Below are positions 25,021 through 33,811 of a stretch of 64,000 bases of DNA, one piece after another. The translations under genes and the position numbers were made by a program. Within the stretch, counting starts at the first letter, position 1. The number at the start of each line of letters is the position of its first letter. Source of the stretch: Bacillota bacterium (lineage in GTDB: Bacteria; Bacillota; UBA994; UBA5500); contig JBMNFA010000006.1 of the NCBI GenBank assembly GCA_050949055.1, positions 11,759 to 75,758 on the forward strand, written 5' to 3'. The notes beneath the pieces were generated by a model. It ran no database searches. It saw only the letters and a program-made list of their open reading frames with translations, and was not told where the DNA came from.

Positions 25021-26898
25021 GTGCCCGGCATGGGCGCTATCTACTAGGTGAAAGTCCTAAGCGGTGAAGGTAGCAGTAGCCGTAGCCTAAGGCAAGGGTG
25101 TCCACCGCGAGGTGGAATCTGAAGGAAGCCGGCGGCAAACTTCCGGCCTGAGGAACACATATCAGCTCATATGAGGCCAGTGACAGTTGGATGAGTCTGC
25201 AGCACAAGGCAAAGTCCATGCTACCGAAGGTTGTTGCTGGTAAATGAGACGGGTAGATGGAAGGAAAGATAGCGCTCTTACCCGGGGAGGCCTGCCAGGT
25301 ACGCCGACAGAGTTGGCAACCCAGACAGTGATGCCTGGCTGAACTGGCAGGAGTCAGCAGAGGCCATAGTACCTGAAGAGATATCGCTTCAGGGAAGGGC
25401 CGAACGCGAAGAAAGGAGAGCAACCGATGAGCTCGCATGGGAAGCAACGACAGCAGAAAATCCCGCAAGGGAGCTACCAGCAGGAGGAAGCAGTGAATCT
25501 GCAGGGGACTGCCGGAGCGCCTAGTTTCCCGACGGCGCGAATCGAGGAGCAATCCTGCCGGAACTGGACACATCTGATGGAGAACGTCGTATCAGAACGG
25601 AATATGAGAGAAGCGTACAAACGCGTCCTTCGGAACAAAGGAGCGGCCGGGATTGACGGAGTGGAGGTTCAGAACCTGAAACCATACCTCTGGGAACACT
25701 GGCCGCGCGTTAAGCAGGAACTGCTCGCGGGAACCTACAAGCCAAGCCCAGTCCGTCGGGTCGAAATCCCGAAACCAGACGGCGGAGTAAGGCTGCTAGG
25801 GATACCCACCGTCCTGGACCGGCTGATCCAACAAAGCCTACTACAAGTAATGAACTTCATCTTCGATCCTGACTTCTCTGAATACAGCTTCGGCTTCCGC
25901 CCTCGCCGCAGCGCGAGACAGGCGGTAACCAAAGCTAAGCAATATATCAACGAAGGCTACCGCTATGTTGTGGACATGGACCTGTCTAAGTTCTTCGACA
26001 GAGTCAACCATGACATATTGATGGCAAAGGCGGCCCGTGTAATCGGAGATAAACGAGCCCTGAAAGTTATCCGCGCATACCTCGAAGCCGGAGTCATGGT
26101 CAATGGCGTGGTACAGGAGACTGAAGAAGGGACACCTCAAGGTGGCCCGCTCAGTCCACTCCTGGCAAACATCATGCTGGATGAACTGGACAAAGAGCTA
26201 GAGAAACGGGGACACAGGTTCGTCCGTTACGCAGATGACTGCAACATTTATGTCAGAAGCAAACGGGCAGGAGAGCGAGTGATGAAGAGCATTCGCAACT
26301 TCGTGGAAGGCAAGCTTAAGCTGAAAGTCAACGAGGAGAAAAGCGCTGTTGACCGACCTTGGAAGCGCAAGTTTCTGGGGTTCTCATTCACTTCTCAACG
26401 CGAAGCCCGTATCCGAATAGCTCCTAAAACCAAACAGAGAGTCAAGGACAAAATACGGGAACTAACCAGCAGGCGCAAAAGTATGAGCATGGAAGCTCGA
26501 ATCATATCGCTAAACATGTACCTGCGTGGATGGATGGGATACTTCAAGTTGGCCGAAACTCCAAGTGTGTTCCGCGAACTTGATGAGTGGATTCGACGCC
26601 GCTTGCGCATGTGCTTGCTGAAGCAGTGGAAGAAGCCGAAAACCAGGAGGAGCGAGCTGATTAAGCTTGGCATCTCACCAGAGTCAGCTAAGAAGATTAG
26701 CGGATCACGCAAAGGTTACTGGCGACTCGCACTCACTCCACAACTAAACAAAGCCTTAGGCCTCCAGTACTGGAAGGCCCAAGGCTTATTCAGCTTAACT
26801 TCAGCATTGCCCAAAGGTTAAACTTCGCGAACCGCCGTATACCGAACGGTACGTACGGTGGTGTGAGAGGACGGGGGTTAGTCACCCCCTCCTACTCG
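25021..26898 (+). mobile_element. bacterial group II intron, class C-like (inserted directly 3' of a hairpin; RT/maturase without endonuclease domain)
   Basis: Starts GUGCCCGG right after REP-B. It contains the RT/maturase ORF. Domain V-like gaaccgccgtataccgaacggtacgtacggtgg lies at 26829-26863 and a domain VI hairpin with a bulged A at 26863-26897. The 3' boundary is approximate. Confidence 0.7.
25427..26821 (+). CDS. group II intron reverse transcriptase/maturase
   Basis: RT motifs 0-7 (...RVEIPKPDGGVRLLGIPTVLDRLIQ..., YADDCNIYV) plus the maturase X domain; 464 aa. Confidence 0.9.
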   Translation: MSSHGKQRQQKIPQGSYQQEEAVNLQGTAGAPSFPTARIEEQSCRNWTHLMENVVSERNMREAYKRVLRNKGAAGIDGVEVQNLKPYLWEHWPRVKQELLAGTYKPSPVRRVEIPKPDGGVRLLGIPTVLDRLIQQSLLQVMNFIFDPDFSEYSFGFRPRRSARQAVTKAKQYINEGYRYVVDMDLSKFFDRVNHDILMAKAARVIGDKRALKVIRAYLEAGVMVNGVVQETEEGTPQGGPLSPLLANIMLDELDKELEKRGHRFVRYADDCNIYVRSKRAGERVMKSIRNFVEGKLKLKVNEEKSAVDRPWKRKFLGFSFTSQREARIRIAPKTKQRVKDKIRELTSRRKSMSMEARIISLNMYLRGWMGYFKLAETPSVFRELDEWIRRRLRMCLLKQWKKPKTRRSELIKLGISPESAKKISGSRKGYWRLALTPQLNKALGLQYWKAQGLFSLTSALPKG

Positions 26899-28759: not shown

Positions 28760-29770
28760 TTACCTCCAGCGTTTGTACAACTCGGCCACAATCTGCTCGA
28801 TGGGGGCCTTACGGATTTCGATATCGATTACACCATCCAGTTTCGCTATTTCCGCCAGCACTAGTCTCACCGGGATGACAGCCGTATCGAACTCGTATTC
28901 ACTGTTGCTTCGTTCGCTATGGAGTAGTCTACCGCAGGGGAGAGGCTGGGCTTCGCCCCTAAAGGTCAGGCGCAATCGGCAAAGGCCACCTGTCAGCTGA
29001 CGCAGCTCTTCGAAGCTTCCGTCAAAGGCTATCTGCCCGTGGGACAGCAACACGATTCGCTGGGCCATTTCCTCCAGGTCGTCCATGTCGTGGCTGGTGA
29101 CGACGATAGTGGTTCCTTGCTCTCGGTTGATTTGCTTCAGAAAGTCTATCATCTGGCGCTTGGCCAACACATCCAGCCCCAGAGTGGGTTCGTCTAGGAA
29201 GATCAACTCCGGGTCATGCAACAGCATCAAACCCAAGTCGGCCCGCATGCGCTGCCCCAAGCTGAGTTCCCGGGCGAAAGTGTTCATCAAGTCAGATAGC
29301 TCCAGCAGTTCGCTAACCATAGCCAAGCGGCGTTGGTAGACAGACTGTGGGATGTTCCAGACAACCCGCTTCCATTCATAGCTGACCGCGACCGGGTGAT
29401 CCCACCAGAGCTCGGTGCGCTGCCCGAAGATAACCCCGATCCGTTTCATCAGATCCACTCGGGACTGCTCCGGTCTTAGCCCCAAAACGTAGACTTCGCC
29501 GCTGCTCGGCTGCATAATCCCCGCCAGGATTTTTATGGTGGTGCTCTTGCCTGCGCCGTTTGCCCCCGCATAGGCCACAAACTCTCCGCGCCCGATTTCC
29601 AGAGAGACGTCTTTCAGGGCGTCGACAGTTCTCTTCTCCGGCTTAACCAGGTTACGCAGGATGTCTTTCACGCTTCCGGATCGCTGCCATTGCACAAACT
29701 GCTTGCAGACGTTGTTCAGGCTAACTGCGATGTCCCCGGTCGTGATATCTAATTGAGCCCCGTTTGGCAT
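28760..29770 (-). CDS. ABC transporter ATP-binding protein (ABC-2 exporter type, with C-terminal extension)
   Basis: Walker A GANGAGKST, signature LSLGQRMR, Walker B LIFLDEPTLGLD. Confidence 0.85.
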   Translation of the reverse strand: MPNGAQLDITTGDIAVSLNNVCKQFVQWQRSGSVKDILRNLVKPEKRTVDALKDVSLEIGRGEFVAYAGANGAGKSTTIKILAGIMQPSSGEVYVLGLRPEQSRVDLMKRIGVIFGQRTELWWDHPVAVSYEWKRVVWNIPQSVYQRRLAMVSELLELSDLMNTFARELSLGQRMRADLGLMLLHDPELIFLDEPTLGLDVLAKRQMIDFLKQINREQGTTIVVTSHDMDDLEEMAQRIVLLSHGQIAFDGSFEELRQLTGGLCRLRLTFRGEAQPLPCGRLLHSERSNSEYEFDTAVIPVRLVLAEIAKLDGVIDIEIRKAPIEQIVAELYKRWR

Positions 29771-30566
29771 AATGTTTCATCCCTCTCTTAAACAACTTGG
29801 TGGCGATAAAAGCCAATGCAATGGTCACCATCAGTAAGAGAACTCCCGGCATGTCGCTTGGTGTCTGCCCGAGCAGTACATTGGCTGGGAACCATGCTGC
29901 TAGCCCTACCGGAACAACGGTACAGAGTATTGCCCGGGTGACCAGCGCCAGCCCTCCGATGGGGAACGTCTTGAGGGCACCAAACAGACCTATGGCCGTG
30001 GTGCTGATCTCTTCGCCTGCCACCGGGGCGTAAAAGGCGACGCTGCCTGCGATGTATGAGCAACTGAGGATGACTGCCACTGAGCAAAGGAGGCTGAACA
30101 GGAGGCTGCCAATCCACAGGCCGCTGACCGTCAGGGTCAATCGGCTGATTGCTGCCATAGTGATAGCGATGCCATAGAGCAGCGTGCTGTTGCCGGACAC
30201 AGGCAAGAAGCCCTCGCTGGCTAGCTGCATCCACAGCGGCACCGGTTGAATCAAACGATGATCAAGCTGCCCTCGGCCGATCAAGCGGCTGATCCAGGCC
30301 ACGTTGTTCATGCCAAAGAACATCGATATCACCCCATCTACTGTGCAGGCGTACCCCAGCATGAACAGCACTTGATCGGCGTTCATCCCGCCTATATTGT
30401 CAAACCGTTCTGCCAACAAGTAGACACCCAATGTGCTAGCTAAACTTGACGTAACATCAGCCAGAATACAGGCAACGCAGTATTTTGTATCCCGCAGGAA
30501 CCAGAGTAGGTCCATCTTGGCATAGATGCCCCAAAGCTGCCAGAGGCGTTTCATGCTAGCCACCAT
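29721..30566 (-). CDS. ABC-2 type transporter permease
   Basis: 281 aa, 6 predicted TM helices; operon with the ATPase. Confidence 0.7.
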   Translation of the reverse strand: MVASMKRLWQLWGIYAKMDLLWFLRDTKYCVACILADVTSSLASTLGVYLLAERFDNIGGMNADQVLFMLGYACTVDGVISMFFGMNNVAWISRLIGRGQLDHRLIQPVPLWMQLASEGFLPVSGNSTLLYGIAITMAAISRLTLTVSGLWIGSLLFSLLCSVAVILSCSYIAGSVAFYAPVAGEEISTTAIGLFGALKTFPIGGLALVTRAILCTVVPVGLAAWFPANVLLGQTPSDMPGVLLLMVTIALAFIATKLFKRGMKHYAKRGSIRYHDRGHRS

Positions 30567-31338
30567 AGGACACCATCCTTTCCTCGCTGCCCCGAAACGC
30601 CCAGATGGTGACGGGCCAGAACACCAAATTCCAGATTAGCTGCAATCCAATCAGTCGTAGCGGATCGCTGACGCCCACCAGAACCAGCAAAGGCGCGCTG
30701 GCCACTGAGCCGAAGGGTAGCATCTCCAGCGCCCGGCCCAAGCCCCAGGGCAGCAGGGCGAAGGGAATTACGGCTCCCGAGAACAGACTGGTGATCGCCT
30801 GCCTGATGGTGTAGGCTTGATAGCTGGCATTCTTCACGTAGATCACCAGGGAGGCGTATAGGAAGTCTAGGGCAAAGCCGAGGGAAACGGCTAGCAGTAG
30901 GCTGCACAAGAACAACGGGCCGTTGGTCGCTAGTATTGGCAGCAGATTGATGCCCAATAGGCCAGCGATACAGATCATCGGTAACGTATAGAGCGCCAGC
31001 CCCGGCAGCCAGCCGCCGACGGTCTCGGCTATCATTTGGCCTAACACCGGCAGCGGTCGCAGGTAGCGGGAGATGATCGAGCCTTCCCAAAAGGCGGTGG
31101 TGGCCGGTGTGATCACACTCAGTTGTTCCCTCAGTATGGATGCCAGCAGCGTATAGGCCAGTAGCTGCTCCAGGGTGAACCCGCCCAAATCTGCCCCCTG
31201 AGCGGCCAACGAGCGCCACAGGAGCAGCAGTATGACTAGGCTGGCCAGCTTCAACAGGTGGCCGCCAAGCATGTACAGCAGTCCCCCGTCAAAAGCCCGC
31301 GTAGCCGAGAGCTGTGTAGTAGTCAGGTATCTTTTCAC
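30556..31338 (-). CDS. ABC-2 type transporter permease (second)
   Basis: Multi-TM ORF. The preferred start is the GTG at 31336-31338, which has a strong SD gaaggagg 7 nt upstream; the ORF-track start at 31479 would begin inside the terminator. Confidence 0.65.
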   Translation of the reverse strand: MKRYLTTTQLSATRAFDGGLLYMLGGHLLKLASLVILLLLWRSLAAQGADLGGFTLEQLLAYTLLASILREQLSVITPATTAFWEGSIISRYLRPLPVLGQMIAETVGGWLPGLALYTLPMICIAGLLGINLLPILATNGPLFLCSLLLAVSLGFALDFLYASLVIYVKNASYQAYTIRQAITSLFSGAVIPFALLPWGLGRALEMLPFGSVASAPLLVLVGVSDPLRLIGLQLIWNLVFWPVTIWAFRGSEERMVSYGG

Positions 31339-31391
31339 CTGAATGTCCTCCTTCAGTTTTACAAGTCGTCCGCAAGCATATAGCCCTGGGC

Positions 31392-31507
31392 AGACAAAAG
31401 CCCGCGGGCTGTTGGTTCGCCCGCGGGTATCTGTGCGCAAGTCTAATACCACAATCCTGGTACATGACCAAAGGCACACAAAAAACCGCGGGCAGCAACA
31501 CCCGCGG
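31392..31507 (-). promoter_or_regulatory. two tandem intrinsic terminators in the 5' leader of the ABC-2 operon (T1 31480-31507, CCGCGGGUGUUGCUGCCCGCGG + U6; T2 31392-31427, CCCGCGGGCGAACCAACAGCCCGCGGG + CUUUUG)
   Basis: Hairpins read directly. All four arms share the self-complementary CCCGCGGG, which allows alternative pairings. Confidence 0.55.
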
Positions 31508-31551
31508 TCTATCGATAGCTTTAGCTGTTCGGCGAAATGATCACCTCATGC

Positions 31552-31674
31552 TCAGCTGATCGCAGGGACCCCAGATGCTGCAAAAGGGCATACTACTCCC
31601 TTGGGGGTGCTCCTGAATCCTACGATCCGATGCATGATCATGAAGTAATCGGTGTTGTAGCCTTTTGTCTGCAC
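31552..31674 (-). CDS. candidate 40-codon leader/small ORF (GTG start; VQTKGYNTDYFMIMHRIVGFRSTPKGVVCPFAASGVPAIS)
   Basis: Near-consensus promoter (-35 ttgccc, -10 tataat, 17-bp spacer, at 31709-31737) and SD GGAGGG 7 nt before the GTG. The ORF ends 45 nt before terminator T1. Confidence 0.35.
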   Translation of the reverse strand: MQTKGYNTDYFMIMHRIVGFRSTPKGVVCPFAASGVPAIS

Positions 31675-31878
31675 TGCAAGTCCCTCCTTTATCACAGATT
31701 CACTAACGATTATAATCTGGCAGCGAGCATGGGGCAAGGGGTAATTTGGTATCAGGCTAAAGATTGCACGCCAGCAGGGAGGCCCCCAGAGCGCCGGTGA
31801 ACTGGCAGTCGGAGGTGAGTTGGTGGCGCTGGTGGAACACCGCGACGGCACGTTGATCGATGTGGTGCGGAGGGTGGT

Positions 31879-31986
31879 ATGGGGAACAGCTTGTTGGCGG
31901 TGAAGGAAAAGCTTTATCAACTGCAGCTGGAATTGCTGCAACAAGCCACGGGGACGGTTCGGCTGACTCATCGCAACGAGTCATGA
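31879..31986 (+). CDS. Spo0E-like small ORF truncated by IS insertion (MGNSLLAVKEKLYQLQLELLQQATGTVRLTHRNES)
   Basis: SD GGAGGG 5 nt before the ATG. The helical LxxLxxEL...G.LTH pattern is like Spo0E-family phosphatases. Its stop codon is the terminal TGA of the IS. Confidence 0.3.
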   Translation: MGNSLLAVKEKLYQLQLELLQQATGTVRLTHRNES

Positions 31987-32258
31987 GGTGCCCCCTGTCG
32001 AGTTGACAAACGAAATAATGAAAGCGTTTGCTCCTTAGGAATGACCCTGAGGAGCCTTCTTTCTTGGGATGTCTTAAGCAATACAGCCAATGGTTGCTGG
32101 CCACGGCTCTCCCTGTCGGAGCCCTGAGCAGTACCACAGGGTGAGTCCCTTGACCCCTGTGCTACAATTTTGTGCGCAGAGGGGCGATGAGGTATCTGCT
32201 GTGCTCTCCCTACCATCGCCCCTCGCACCTTCGTTAAGCACAGGGAGTCAAGGGCGAT

Positions 32259-33017
32259 TTATGCACACATTCTGTACTCCATCGGGGTCAGACCAGAAAA
32301 CTTCCTTTGCGGTCGTTCTTCGTTGTAGAAGCGTATATAGTCACTTACGTCGGCTACCAGATCTTCGTAGCTCTCGTAATACTTTCTTAGGTTGTAGCGC
32401 TCTGCTTTGGGCTTGCCCCAAAATCCTTCCATGGGGCCATTGTCAATGCAGCGGCTTACTCTTGACATGCTTTGGATCATGCCCTGATTCGTGATAATCT
32501 TGGCAAAACCATAGGAAGTATATTGGAAGCCTCTATCGCTGTGAATGAGGGGCTGTGCTTCTGGATTGGCCTTCAAGGCTGCCTGCAATGTGCTAAAGAC
32601 AAGCTTGTTGTTATTCCTCTTACCAATGACATAGGCAACAATACTGTTGTCGTAAAGGTCGAGAATGGCGCTCAGGTATGCTTTCTGACCGTCGCCATAC
32701 TTGAACTCGGTTACATCTGTAAGCCATTTCTGGTTCTTCCTCAAAGCTGTGAACTTTCTGTTCAGCAGGTTCTCAGCAACATGTCCAGGCGAAGACTTTT
32801 TGTATTGTCTGCGTTTCTTTCGAGTGACCGATTTCAGACCCATAAGTCGCATCAACCGATAGATTCGTTTGAGGTTGTACGTTGCCTGTAGCCTCCGGTT
32901 CACGACCAGTTGCATCATCCTGTAGCCGTAGATACCCTTGACCTCCAGGTAGATACCAGCTATTGTGTCAGCGATTAACTCGTTTGTCCGCTCTCGCTCA
33001 CTTGGTTCCTTCTTCAA
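32259..33017 (-). CDS. IS3-family transposase OrfB (DDE integrase core); expressed as an OrfAB fusion by -1 frameshift
   Basis: IHSDRGFQYTS DDE-core motif; -1 frame relative to orfA. Confidence 0.85.
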   Translation of the reverse strand: MKKEPSERERTNELIADTIAGIYLEVKGIYGYRMMQLVVNRRLQATYNLKRIYRLMRLMGLKSVTRKKRRQYKKSSPGHVAENLLNRKFTALRKNQKWLTDVTEFKYGDGQKAYLSAILDLYDNSIVAYVIGKRNNNKLVFSTLQAALKANPEAQPLIHSDRGFQYTSYGFAKIITNQGMIQSMSRVSRCIDNGPMEGFWGKPKAERYNLRKYYESYEDLVADVSDYIRFYNEERPQRKFSGLTPMEYRMCA

Positions 33018-33133
33018 ATAATTGTAGTGCGCCTGGCGGCTGATGTTGGCAACCCTGCATAACTCAGAGATAGAGTGGCCTTTGCTGTGCAGTTCGTGGA
33101 TTGCCTGATGGAGTTTAAATCGTGGAACTCGGC

Positions 33134-33811
33134 CTAGCGATACCTCTTCTCGAGTTCCTCCAATTTTTTTAGGAATGCGTTCTCCACGCTCAGTCTGCGA
33201 ACTTCCTTCTGCAGATTACGAAGCTCAATCTTCAGCCGATCGGCCTCTGTCAACTCAGTTTCCTCTTTGGCTTTGCCTCGGCGGTCAACAAGTGCCTTCT
33301 CTCCGCCTTTGTTATACTTACTAACCCAAGAGTGAACCTGCTGGTAGCTGACCTTATAGAGCTCCGCTGCCTCCCGGTAGTTACAGTCATTGGCTATACA
33401 ATGTTGGACAATCTCTATACGCTCATCGTAGGTGGTTCTCCGCCCTTTGTTCATGTCTCTGGATTCCCCTCCTGGAGAAGACTTGAGTTCTTCTCCTTGA
33501 GTATACTTGAAAATCCAGCGCCGAAGTTGCGTTTCCTCCCTTATGCCGTACCTAAGGCAGATGTCCATTTGAGAGCCTTCTCCCGTCAGGTAGGCTTGTA
33601 CAGCTTGCATCTTAAGCTCAGCAGGATAATGATTACTACTCAATTGCCCGACCAGGGAGTCTATACCATATTCCTGTAACCTAATACGCCATCGACGTAT
33701 TGTACTCTTGCCTACGTTGAACCTGGAAACTGCCTCTTTGACTGGATGCCCTTCATCAATCCATGCAAGTATTCGTAGCTTCTCTCCCAAAGTGAACTTG
33801 CGTCCGGACAA
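33134..33811 (-). CDS. IS3-family transposase OrfA (HTH)
   Basis: HTH-rich 225 aa ending ...FLKKLEELEKRYR just after the AAAAAAA frameshift site. Confidence 0.85.
   Translation of the reverse strand: MSGRKFTLGEKLRILAWIDEGHPVKEAVSRFNVGKSTIRRWRIRLQEYGIDSLVGQLSSNHYPAELKMQAVQAYLTGEGSQMDICLRYGIREETQLRRWIFKYTQGEELKSSPGGESRDMNKGRRTTYDERIEIVQHCIANDCNYREAAELYKVSYQQVHSWVSKYNKGGEKALVDRRGKAKEETELTEADRLKIELRNLQKEVRRLSVENAFLKKLEELEKRYR

Follow-up and report, generated by a model that had tools for sequence, protein, structure and literature searches.

The stretch of DNA considered here, referred to as the window, comprises 64,000 nucleotides (nt) of contig JBMNFA010000006.1 from a Bacillota bacterium. On its minus strand it carries an operon of three genes, which encode the two permeases and the ATPase of an ATP-binding cassette (ABC) exporter of the ABC-2 type. 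This operon is preceded by a leader that comprises a promoter, a small open reading frame (ORF) of 40 codons and two successive intrinsic terminators, T1 and T2. The leader elements were read directly on the minus strand, while Pfam and NCBIfam were used for the proteins and terminator and promoter scans for the signals. The following elements were located, six of which are numbered as segments of the predicted alternative pairings.

31737-31709, minus strand: sigma-A-type promoter, with -35 TTGCCC (31737-31732), a spacer of 17 nt and -10 TATAAT (31714-31709)
31690-31682, minus strand: Shine-Dalgarno (SD) sequence AAAGGAGGG of the leader ORF, with GGAGGG at 31687-31682, 7 nt ahead of the GTG at 31674
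31674-31552, minus strand: leader ORF of 40 codons, VQTKGYNTDYFMIMHRIVGFRSTPKGVVCPFAASGVPAIS, with GTG start and TGA stop (31554-31552)
31651-31608, minus strand: segment 1, 5' strand of the predicted anti-antiterminator hairpin, within the ORF (codons 8-23)
31602-31581, minus strand: motif AAGGGAGUAGUAUGCCCUUUUG, conserved as nucleotides, in the apical loop formed by segments 1 and 2
31580-31539, minus strand: segment 2, 3' strand of the predicted anti-antiterminator; its 5' part (31580-31560) doubles as 5' strand of the antiterminator, with the T1 5' arm as partner
31510-31480, minus strand: terminator T1 (segments 3 and 4), with stem 31510-31483 and U6 31485-31480, matched by the terminator scan
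31427-31394, minus strand: terminator T2 (segments 5 and 6), with arms CCCGCGGGC and GCCCGCGGG and the tail CUUUUGU
31395-31388, minus strand: core of a partial second motif, GUCUGCCC, immediately 3' of T2
31351-31336, minus strand: SD sequence GGAGG (31351-31347) and GTG start (31338) of the first permease, the same start being called on public contigs
31338-28760, minus strand: operon under the proposed control, with PF06182 permeases at 31338-30556 and 30566-29721 and the ABC ATPase at 29770-28760

The promoter attains a score of 10/12 in a scan that returned 2 promoter-like sites in 1.6 kb versus 1.0 expected. The stem of T1 consists of 12 pairs, 7 of them G-C, formed by the arms ACCGCGGG and CCCGCGGU. 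T2 features a G+C stem of 9 bp (31427-31419 with 31409-31401) and a loop of 9 nt, and was overlooked by the terminator scan solely through the scan's loop limit of 8. Both permeases exceed the PF06182 (ABC2_membrane_6) cutoff of 22 bits, scoring 31.4 and 89.1 bits; the ATPase matches ABC_tran with 82.2 bits. The promoter, the SD sequence, the 40-codon ORF, T1 with its U6 tract, T2 and the three-gene ABC-2 operon with its own SD sequence, all of which had been named in an earlier note on this DNA, were found on the minus strand. The same note had assigned the octamer CCCGCGGG to all four terminator arms and concluded that arm 2 can pair with arm 3. The octamer is present just twice here, once per T2 arm, so that the former statement applies to T2 only, while the latter stands by virtue of the self-complementary CCGCGG common to all four arms.

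As listed mechanically, the operon genes overlap by 11 nt (30556-30566) and 50 nt (29721-29770) on the minus strand, which suggests either translational coupling or a true start of the ATPase further downstream. A search of the whole window against Rfam 15 at gathering score yielded nothing relevant for the leader, and the same holds for the leader at the level of E-values.

Conservation of the leader among related loci

For comparison, 80 loci were fetched from species-representative genomes by means of the first permease, whose relatives number hundreds and belong to uncultured Bacillota and Clostridia. Three identical public metagenome contigs (L001-L003) provide no comparative information. 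Querying with the 40-residue peptide in tblastn retrieved homologous small ORFs at the same position ahead of the operon in the nearest relatives (e.g. MAMKGFDTEAFLIMHRRTGFKVSAKGVVYPF...). The window's clade comprises 13 loci (the window, L004-L013, L015 and L018) with a permease identity of 55-78%.

Promoter, SD sequence and an ORF of 34-55 codons are kept in all 13 loci of this clade, with the promoter of the relatives featuring -35 TTGCC or TTGAC and -10 TATAAT, TAATAT or TAAAAT at an unchanged position. The frame of the leader ORF is free of stop codons in 13/13 loci, compared with 0-7 stops in the other frames. Moreover, the distance from the start codon to the motif is constant at 27 codons (81 nt) in 11 of the 13, and variation within the conserved stretch is highest at third codon positions (0.33 versus 0.10 and 0.18). 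Because the frame is open, the spacing constant and the wobble positions most variable across the clade, the leader ORF is very probably translated. T1 with the core GCC-R-Y-GG-GUG is likewise kept in all 13 loci, and T2 in all but L006 and L018.

In other clades the leader peptides are unrelated or only distantly related, yet nearly all operons are preceded by a strongly signalled leader ORF of 30-85 codons, and a strong leader SD sequence is found in all relatives. An intrinsic terminator follows the stop codon of the leader ORF after 5-52 nt in the window's clade and after about 20-25 nt in most others. The arrangement of leader ORF and terminator thus precedes orthologous operons in dozens of uncultured Bacillota. 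As a check, the earlier note had suggested looking for a conserved ORF and hairpins upstream of orthologous ABC-2 operons; both are present throughout the window's clade and in nearly all other clades.

The window leader folds 3.9 standard deviations better than shuffled sequences, which together with the conservation in diverged orthologous loci sets the arrangement apart from a chance constellation. Under the latter, T1 would be the leftover terminator of an upstream gene that was destroyed by insertion of an IS3-family insertion sequence (IS), and the ORF would be spurious. Such an element indeed resides about 520 nt upstream of the leader promoter (32259-33811, minus strand, ORFs 33134-33811 and 32259-33017), and the stretch in between (31757-32258) contains only ORF fragments without family matches that defy annotation. 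Nevertheless, this explanation is scarcely tenable and already contradicted, since promoter, SD sequence, ORF, T1 and T2 are conserved in relatives with different upstream genes and without an IS. Public contigs of the same strain end near 32010, probably at the IS3 repeat.

The genes upstream of the leader vary between loci, and no dedicated regulator gene is conserved there in the loci inspected. L036 features a divergent ORF of 326 amino acids on the opposite strand, about 110-1090 nt upstream of the leader, the N-terminus of which resembles a MerR-type helix-turn-helix by eye. This ORF was seen at a single locus, the only member of its clade inspected, and is not a conserved partner of the leader.

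Predicted alternative pairings of the leader RNA

Pairings were found in each sequence separately and then tested; hardly any consensus structure was obtained with RNAalifold from the ORF region as aligned by MAFFT. Pairs were counted on an alignment of two native blocks, in which the variable spacer was swapped for a fixed linker and only native columns were considered. In 11 sequences of the window's clade the T1 helix is 94.9% paired, compared with 33-52% in slid controls. Two of its pairs display double changes (GC<->AU and CG<->UA), and its covariation score was reached by none of 500 shuffles.

The 5' arm of T1 together with the first bases of its loop (...GGGUG) finds its best upstream partner within this clade at motif +12 to +34 (GCACCCAnGG...), that is, in the antiterminator strand of segment 2. 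In the window the antiterminator joins 31580-31560 with 31510-31497. In one fixed register it is 78.8% paired versus 31-47% in slid controls, its score being reached by 1 of 500 shuffles, and the first six pairs are intact in 11/11 sequences. Its partners change together: CACCCAUGGUC occurs with GGCCACGGGUG, GCAUCUAU with AUGGAUGC and AAUGAU with GUCAU. In two further clades the 5' arms of the terminators likewise find their best partner at motif +10 to +40.

In the window, segments 1 and 2 are predicted to form an anti-antiterminator hairpin of -42 kcal/mol (31651-31608 with 31579-31539), which presents the motif in its apical loop. Further downstream, the 3' arm of T1, at 31492-31483, is able to pair with the 5' arm of T2, at 31427-31419. 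The stems of both terminators change jointly: G+C-rich genomes feature CCGCGG/CCACGG, A+T-rich genomes CCAUGG. For these pairings, partners from the same leader were compared with partners taken from different leaders, a type of test that is consistent with the proposed structures rather than conclusive. For the antiterminator, partners from one genome pair more strongly than partners combined across genomes, and no permutation reached so low an energy. The strands before and after the motif pair in 65 distinct leaders, ten of them belonging to ABC-F genes, with -22.2 kcal/mol for own versus -18.1 kcal/mol for cross-locus pairs (0/5000 permutations as low). The pairing of T1 3' arm and T2 5' arm amounts to -15.9 kcal/mol for own versus -12.6 kcal/mol for cross pairs. 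In summary, the comparison establishes the leader elements, their conservation and the covarying pairings.

The influence of a translating ribosome was simulated by folding the window leader with a stretch of 27 nt blocked as footprint. With the ribosomal P-site at codons 1-25, the predicted minimum free energy (MFE) structure of the full leader contains neither T1 nor T2, while the pairing of segments 4 and 5 forms. With the P-site at codons 28-37, or in the unconstrained leader without a ribosome, both T1 and T2 are predicted to form.

As a further property of the window leader, the 5' end of the ORF, GCAGACAAAAG (31672-31662), is perfectly complementary over 11 nt to the T2 tail CUUUUGUCUGC (31400-31390) on the minus strand. 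This complementarity, observed in the window only, encloses the entire leader and has a chance expectation of about 0.1 in the stretch.

The loop motif and its three reading frames

The motif in the apical loop has the consensus GGGRNAAGTCTGCCCTTTTT (RNA GGGRNAAGUCUGCCCUUUUU), with AAGGGAGTAGTATGCCCTTTTG as the window copy (31602-31581, minus strand). Its core is found within 500 nt upstream of 52 of 78 PF06182 operons, where it reaches a density of 1.44 per kb versus 0.016 per kb elsewhere in the same loci, a 90-fold difference. Every operon-linked copy falls within a leader ORF with a strong SD sequence. However, the motif is read in three different frames: as ...K-S-A-L-F or S-Y-A-L-L in 32 distinct leaders, as V-[Y/C]-P-F, within K-G-V-V-[Y/C]-P-F, in 13 leaders (the window's clade) and as S-L-P-F-L in 11 leaders. 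Leaders that are otherwise homologous can differ in frame through a single base of the G-run, and in many other loci a stop codon (GGA TAA GTC) interrupts the frame of the window's clade. Owing to the use of three frames and the stops in the window's frame, the constraint on the motif must act on nucleotides. Downstream of the motif, the DCFECLSP segment of another clade changes synonymously.

The motif is a new feature without Rfam or literature match: the literature covered by the search contains no paper with the motif string and no relevant work on PF06182/DUF990 regulation, and Rfam at gathering score returned nothing relevant on 14 related loci, ABC-F and IS contexts included. A weak match of ncr1575 on L151 (22.9 bits versus a gathering score of 60, E 0.35) did not appear at E <= 0.01 in a joint search of five loci.

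Partial copies (a U-tail plus AUGCCC/GUCUGCCC) are often located 3' of the terminator in relatives, also in ABC-F leaders. In addition, two tandem copies are present within a single longer leader ORF of about 85 codons in L062, L065, L068 and L075 (63 nt apart), L067 and L081 (74 nt), L048 (51 nt) and L031 (68 nt). Apparently, these represent an internal duplication of a unit ending in SALL/SALF.

Several candidate roles of the motif were tried and rejected. As a local hairpin or mini-terminator it attains -2.7 to -7 kcal/mol, which is no better than shuffles, its A-U pairs do not covary and one clade is devoid of the GGG. A role as general peptide arrest sequence (KGVVYPF) is at odds with other clades, which give KSALF or SLPFL or a stop in that frame. 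An internal SD-like sequence is missing from the CCGUGCAUUCGUAUGCCC clade. A function as terminal inverted repeat of an IS4-like element fails on two counts: the motif is placed 113 nt inward of the right end, and the inverted near-copy located 1.9 kb upstream has no relation to it. The motif may also partly resemble MOBQ oriT nick sites and the ops element. As an anti-SD sequence for the SD of its own leader, the motif scores strongly in one clade only (z -2.5 to -4.1), with an overall mean z of -0.57. In L064, L069, L071, L076-L079 and L082 the whole stretch from SD to AUG, AAAGGGGGGACUUCCAUG, is complementary to the whole motif, GAUGGGAGAAGUCUGCCCUUUUUG, with -21 to -26 kcal/mol, and judging from this predicted duplex the loop could sequester the leader's own ribosome-binding site in that clade.

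According to a different explanation, the motif would be the site at which a transcription factor, either housekeeping NusG or one of its paralogues of the RfaH/LoaP type, is loaded onto the elongating polymerase or the latter pauses, and both terminators would be bypassed by processive antitermination instead of alternative pairing. By its sequence the motif fits the generic pause pattern G-11 G-10 ... Y-1 G+1 (GGGnnAAGUCU followed by G), and it is placed on mobile elements and ahead of two successive terminators, as this explanation would have it. Moreover, the T-run of most copies (CCCTTTTTT) fits the NusG pause motif TTNTTT described for vmlR (PMC9226507). However, TTNTTT is absent from the window copy (CCCTTTTGCA), L006/L018 and L045/L054, several such copies reading CCCAAAAA. 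Antiterminator and anti-antiterminator covary, which processive antitermination would not require, and no NusG paralogue was seen beside the loci inspected. The likeness to the ops element is only partial. In sum, we consider processive antitermination distinctly improbable as an alternative to ribosome-controlled pairing.

Occurrence of the motif in other genetic contexts

An exact-pattern scan of metagenome contigs yielded at least 120 motif loci, many of the carriers being gut and sediment Clostridia; the counts by context given here are those among the matches listed. At least 13 loci precede a PF06182 operon and at least 18 precede two-domain ABC ATPases, which begin 110-350 nt downstream in nearly all cases. 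Four representatives of the latter pass NCBIfam NF000355, 'ribosomal protection-like ABC-F family protein', with 393-495 bits against a cutoff of 380. Most inspected ABC-F leaders consist of an SD sequence, an ORF of 30-75 codons that contains the motif in any frame, and a terminator, and some have a DCFECLSP-type tail in common with PF06182 leaders.

These contexts also bear on the nature of the leader peptide. According to another explanation, already raised in the earlier note as a secreted substrate, the 40-residue product would have a function of its own as a small protein, for instance as a peptide that the ABC-2 system exports or as a pheromone or bacteriocin, and the hairpins would set its stoichiometry relative to the transporter. 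In its favour, the ORF has strong signals and is conserved across the clade, and small peptides are sometimes co-encoded with ABC-2 exporters, as in the phenol-soluble modulin Pmt system. On the other hand, the peptide sequence is not conserved between clades that carry the same operon, the frame changes over the best-conserved stretch, and the same leader precedes cytoplasmic ABC-F genes. The peptides of the window's clade feature no signal peptide, double-glycine leader or hydrophobic helix, no Pfam or NCBIfam match was obtained, and the operon of two permeases and an ATPase encodes neither a modification enzyme nor an exporter with peptidase domain. A secreted or otherwise functional product is hence very improbable.

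Two unrelated mobile elements bear the same leader signature. At least about 30 motif copies are located in the 3' non-coding end (last ~90 nt) of an IS110-family element (DEDD_Tnp_IS110 and Transposase_20; e.g. L171, L199). At least about 12 belong to an IS4-like DDE element, 113 nt inward of its right end, where they fall within a small ORF led by an SD sequence (L095, L089, L118 and others). In the remaining listed loci the motif follows ParB-like genes or precedes ParA, RidA-like, SPFH and other genes. In L133, L147 and relatives, for instance, it lies 6 nt past the stop codon of a ParB-like gene, whereas in L088 and L145 it is inverted and directly precedes the ATG of a small ORF beside a ParA-like gene. 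The ParA/ParB neighbourhoods point to contexts of plasmids or integrative and conjugative elements. Two 5S rRNA and two tRNA genes reside nearby in L133.

A further explanation is that the RNA itself is the sensor: the 20-nt loop on a long variable helix would be bound in trans by a factor, be it a protein, a small RNA, a segment of rRNA or a small ligand, and this factor would choose between antiterminator and terminator, while translation of the ORF would be secondary, e.g. by resetting the structure. This would account for conservation of the motif as nucleotides in three frames (32, 13 and 11 distinct leaders), for the stops in the window-clade frame at many loci, for its position in the apical loop of a covarying helix and for its presence without evident ORF in IS110-like 3' ends and right after ParB-like genes. 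Such a sensor is nonetheless unlikely, though less so than the other alternatives, since all operon-linked copies lie within an ORF with strong SD sequence, the window's clade varies at the peptide level and at wobble positions, and the DCFECLSP segment of another clade changes synonymously. Furthermore, there is no match to an Rfam family and no conserved partner gene nearby, and a 20-nt loop devoid of supporting tertiary structure is small for a ligand pocket.

The window also contains a group II intron on the plus strand (25101-26821), recognized by Rfam matches to domains D1-D4 at 25101-25276 and 25317-25400, the ORF of which (25427-26821) encodes a reverse transcriptase/maturase of 464 amino acids.

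Proposed regulatory switch

From the conserved and covarying pairings of segments 1 to 6, an attenuator with the alternatives 1:2, 2:3 and 3:4 emerges, to which a relay with the alternatives 4:5 and 5:6 is attached. We propose, with a probability of roughly 70%, that the region is a ribosome-mediated transcription attenuator, i.e. a leader-ORF switch, which controls the three-gene ABC-2 exporter operon. The comparative evidence, the covariation and the alternative pairings thereby lend support to the leader-peptide attenuator envisaged in the earlier note.

We infer the course of events, the inducing signal and the function of the motif as follows. Transcription would start about 7 nt past the TATAAT box and yield a leader with segment 1 at codons 8-23, segment 2 in the last third of the ORF, segments 3 and 4 as arms of T1, and segments 5 and 6 as arms of T2. 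In the off state, with no ribosome present or with smooth translation through segment 2 to the stop codon, segment 2 would be paired with segment 1 or covered, so that T1 (3:4) and T2 (5:6) form and transcription ends. In the on state, the leading ribosome would be delayed within the first ~25 codons while RNA polymerase proceeds, whereby segment 1 is masked and segment 2 left free. The latter would then pair with the T1 5' arm (2:3) and the freed T1 3' arm with the T2 5' arm (4:5), in which case neither terminator forms and the exporter genes are transcribed. Owing to the pairing of arm 2 with arm 3, a single upstream decision would disable both terminators in a relay.

Since the same type of leader precedes ribosomal-protection-like ABC-F genes, the signal is most likely impaired translation, caused for example by ribosome-targeting antibiotics. 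In the model of the window a ribosome on the motif favours termination, and the inducing stall should therefore lie upstream of the motif. Such a position would fit a timing or checkpoint role of the motif better than a role as arrest site. We regard the motif as an element of this leader family that acts at the level of RNA or DNA, and favour, though it is unproven, a timing or checkpoint site at which polymerase and ribosome would be coupled immediately ahead of the decision segment. Two ideas remain as to how it may act, namely as polymerase pause site or as loop bound by a trans-acting factor.

Several points weigh against ribosome-mediated attenuation. All leader structures are predictions, and the lower half of the antiterminator requires different bulges in different genomes. 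The comparisons of own with cross pairs are inflated by differences in G+C content and by shared ancestry of the loci. The U tract of T2 (CUUUUGU) is weak in the window. Moreover, the antiterminator is predicted at -19 kcal/mol and T1 at -22 kcal/mol, and a transcript that ends at T1 keeps this terminator in its MFE structure at nearly every ribosome position; antitermination at T1 therefore has to be kinetic, as in many attenuators. A frame-independent motif conserved at the nucleotide level is unexplained by a purely peptide-based sensor, and the motif occurs in IS110-like 3' ends without an evident leader ORF. Finally, the known ABC-F leaders that sense lincosamide-type drugs use upstream ORFs (uORFs) of 3-4 codons and not of 30-85 codons (PMC10201436).

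A more far-reaching proposal is possible and offered tentatively: the loop motif may define an undescribed, widespread class of translation-status attenuators in Clostridia and Bacillota, which would operate as a sensor at the level of nucleic acid (a frame-independent checkpoint of ribosome or polymerase, or a dock for a factor) and co-regulate ribosomal-protection-like ABC-F genes and ABC-2 exporters. Two or more IS families without mutual relationship would have acquired it and would carry the stress-responsive switch to new genes.

If the proposed switch is correct, an uncharacterised and widespread family of PF06182 exporters is switched on by the same leader as ribosomal-protection-like ABC-F genes and would belong to the means by which uncultured Clostridia of gut and sediment respond to ribosome-targeting compounds. 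The signature of a 20-nt motif in an upstream ORF followed by a terminator could serve to search metagenomes for resistance determinants that are inducible. Nucleotide conservation across three frames is not predicted by current models of antibiotic-sensing leaders, which centre on the peptide, and whether ribosome, polymerase or a factor reads the motif is a directly testable question. In addition, switches of this kind may spread by way of IS elements, as suggested by the motif copies in IS 3' ends.

Comparison with known attenuation systems

In attenuators of the trp/his type, the 1:2, 2:3 and 3:4 pairings are decided by the position of the leading ribosome, and termination ensues both without translation and with unimpeded translation, as proposed here. 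On the contrary, the present leader is devoid of a run of regulatory codons, its ORF ends past segment 2 instead of between segments 1 and 2, and the genes downstream are not biosynthetic. With no codon run in the window-clade peptides and ABC-2 transporter genes downstream, the region does not belong to the amino-acid leader peptides. Nor does it classify as a cassette of peptide plus exporter for a bacteriocin, a ribosomally synthesized and post-translationally modified peptide (RiPP) or a modulin, as frame and peptide change between clades.

The bmrB-bmrCD system of Bacillus subtilis likewise features a translated leader ORF of several tens of codons ahead of an ABC exporter and antibiotic-induced read-through of a terminator. 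However, BmrCD is a heterodimeric type-I exporter and not an ABC-2/PF06182 system, and we know of no conserved nucleotide motif reported for bmrB-bmrCD. The resemblance would thus be functional only, with no sequence relationship evident.

The leader of vmlR, which encodes an ABC-F resistance factor of B. subtilis, contains a uORF of 3 codons (MIN) and senses drugs that arrest initiation (PMC9226507). It shares with the present leader a promoter-proximal uORF with its own SD sequence, an overlapping anti-antiterminator hairpin, the competition of an antiterminator with an intrinsic terminator and a regulated gene from the sphere of drug resistance. In vmlR, a pause element for the polymerase separates the anti-antiterminator from the 3' part of the antiterminator (PMC9226507), and the present motif may be its counterpart. 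Differences consist in the ORF, which here extends through segment 2 with a length of 40 codons (30-85 in relatives), in the two relay-linked terminators, in the window motif devoid of TTNTTT and in the regulation of membrane permeases; there is no sequence similarity.

In Clostridioides difficile, the cplR leader comprises a uORF of 3 codons with the consensus MR[I/M] and a terminator that also sequesters the main SD sequence (PMC10201436). Common features are the occurrence in Clostridia and attenuation by a uORF and an intrinsic terminator, and the cplR uORF start codon was found experimentally to be required for induction (PMC10201436). For both the vmlR and cplR leaders, uORF start codon, terminator and pause element were tested experimentally (PMC9226507, PMC10201436). 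In contrast to the present leader, cplR and other short-uORF ABC-F leaders have no conserved motif of 20 nt.

With respect to classification, the region has the makings of a ribosome-mediated attenuator of the vmlR, cplR, msrD or bmrB type. A uORF with SD sequence and a terminator before the gene are present, and, according to predicted pairings and covariation, so are an antiterminator that uses the 5' arm of the terminator and an anti-antiterminator that a ribosome on the uORF would melt. With 40 codons in the window and 30-85 in relatives, it falls outside the subtype of short uORFs (MIN, MRI, MAGN) that sense arrest of initiation.

As to distribution, 'mobile attenuators' were described as conserved terminator- or attenuator-like sequences in IS 3' ends that land upstream of unrelated genes (PMC2965389). 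Transport of such sequences to new genes by IS 3' ends was thus already proposed in general terms. IS110-like and IS4-like elements, with the motif in their non-coding 3' ends, are reminiscent of these. However, the sequences of that study comprise terminators only, whereas the IS-borne sequence described here has a specific 20-nt motif in common with vertically conserved chromosomal leaders.

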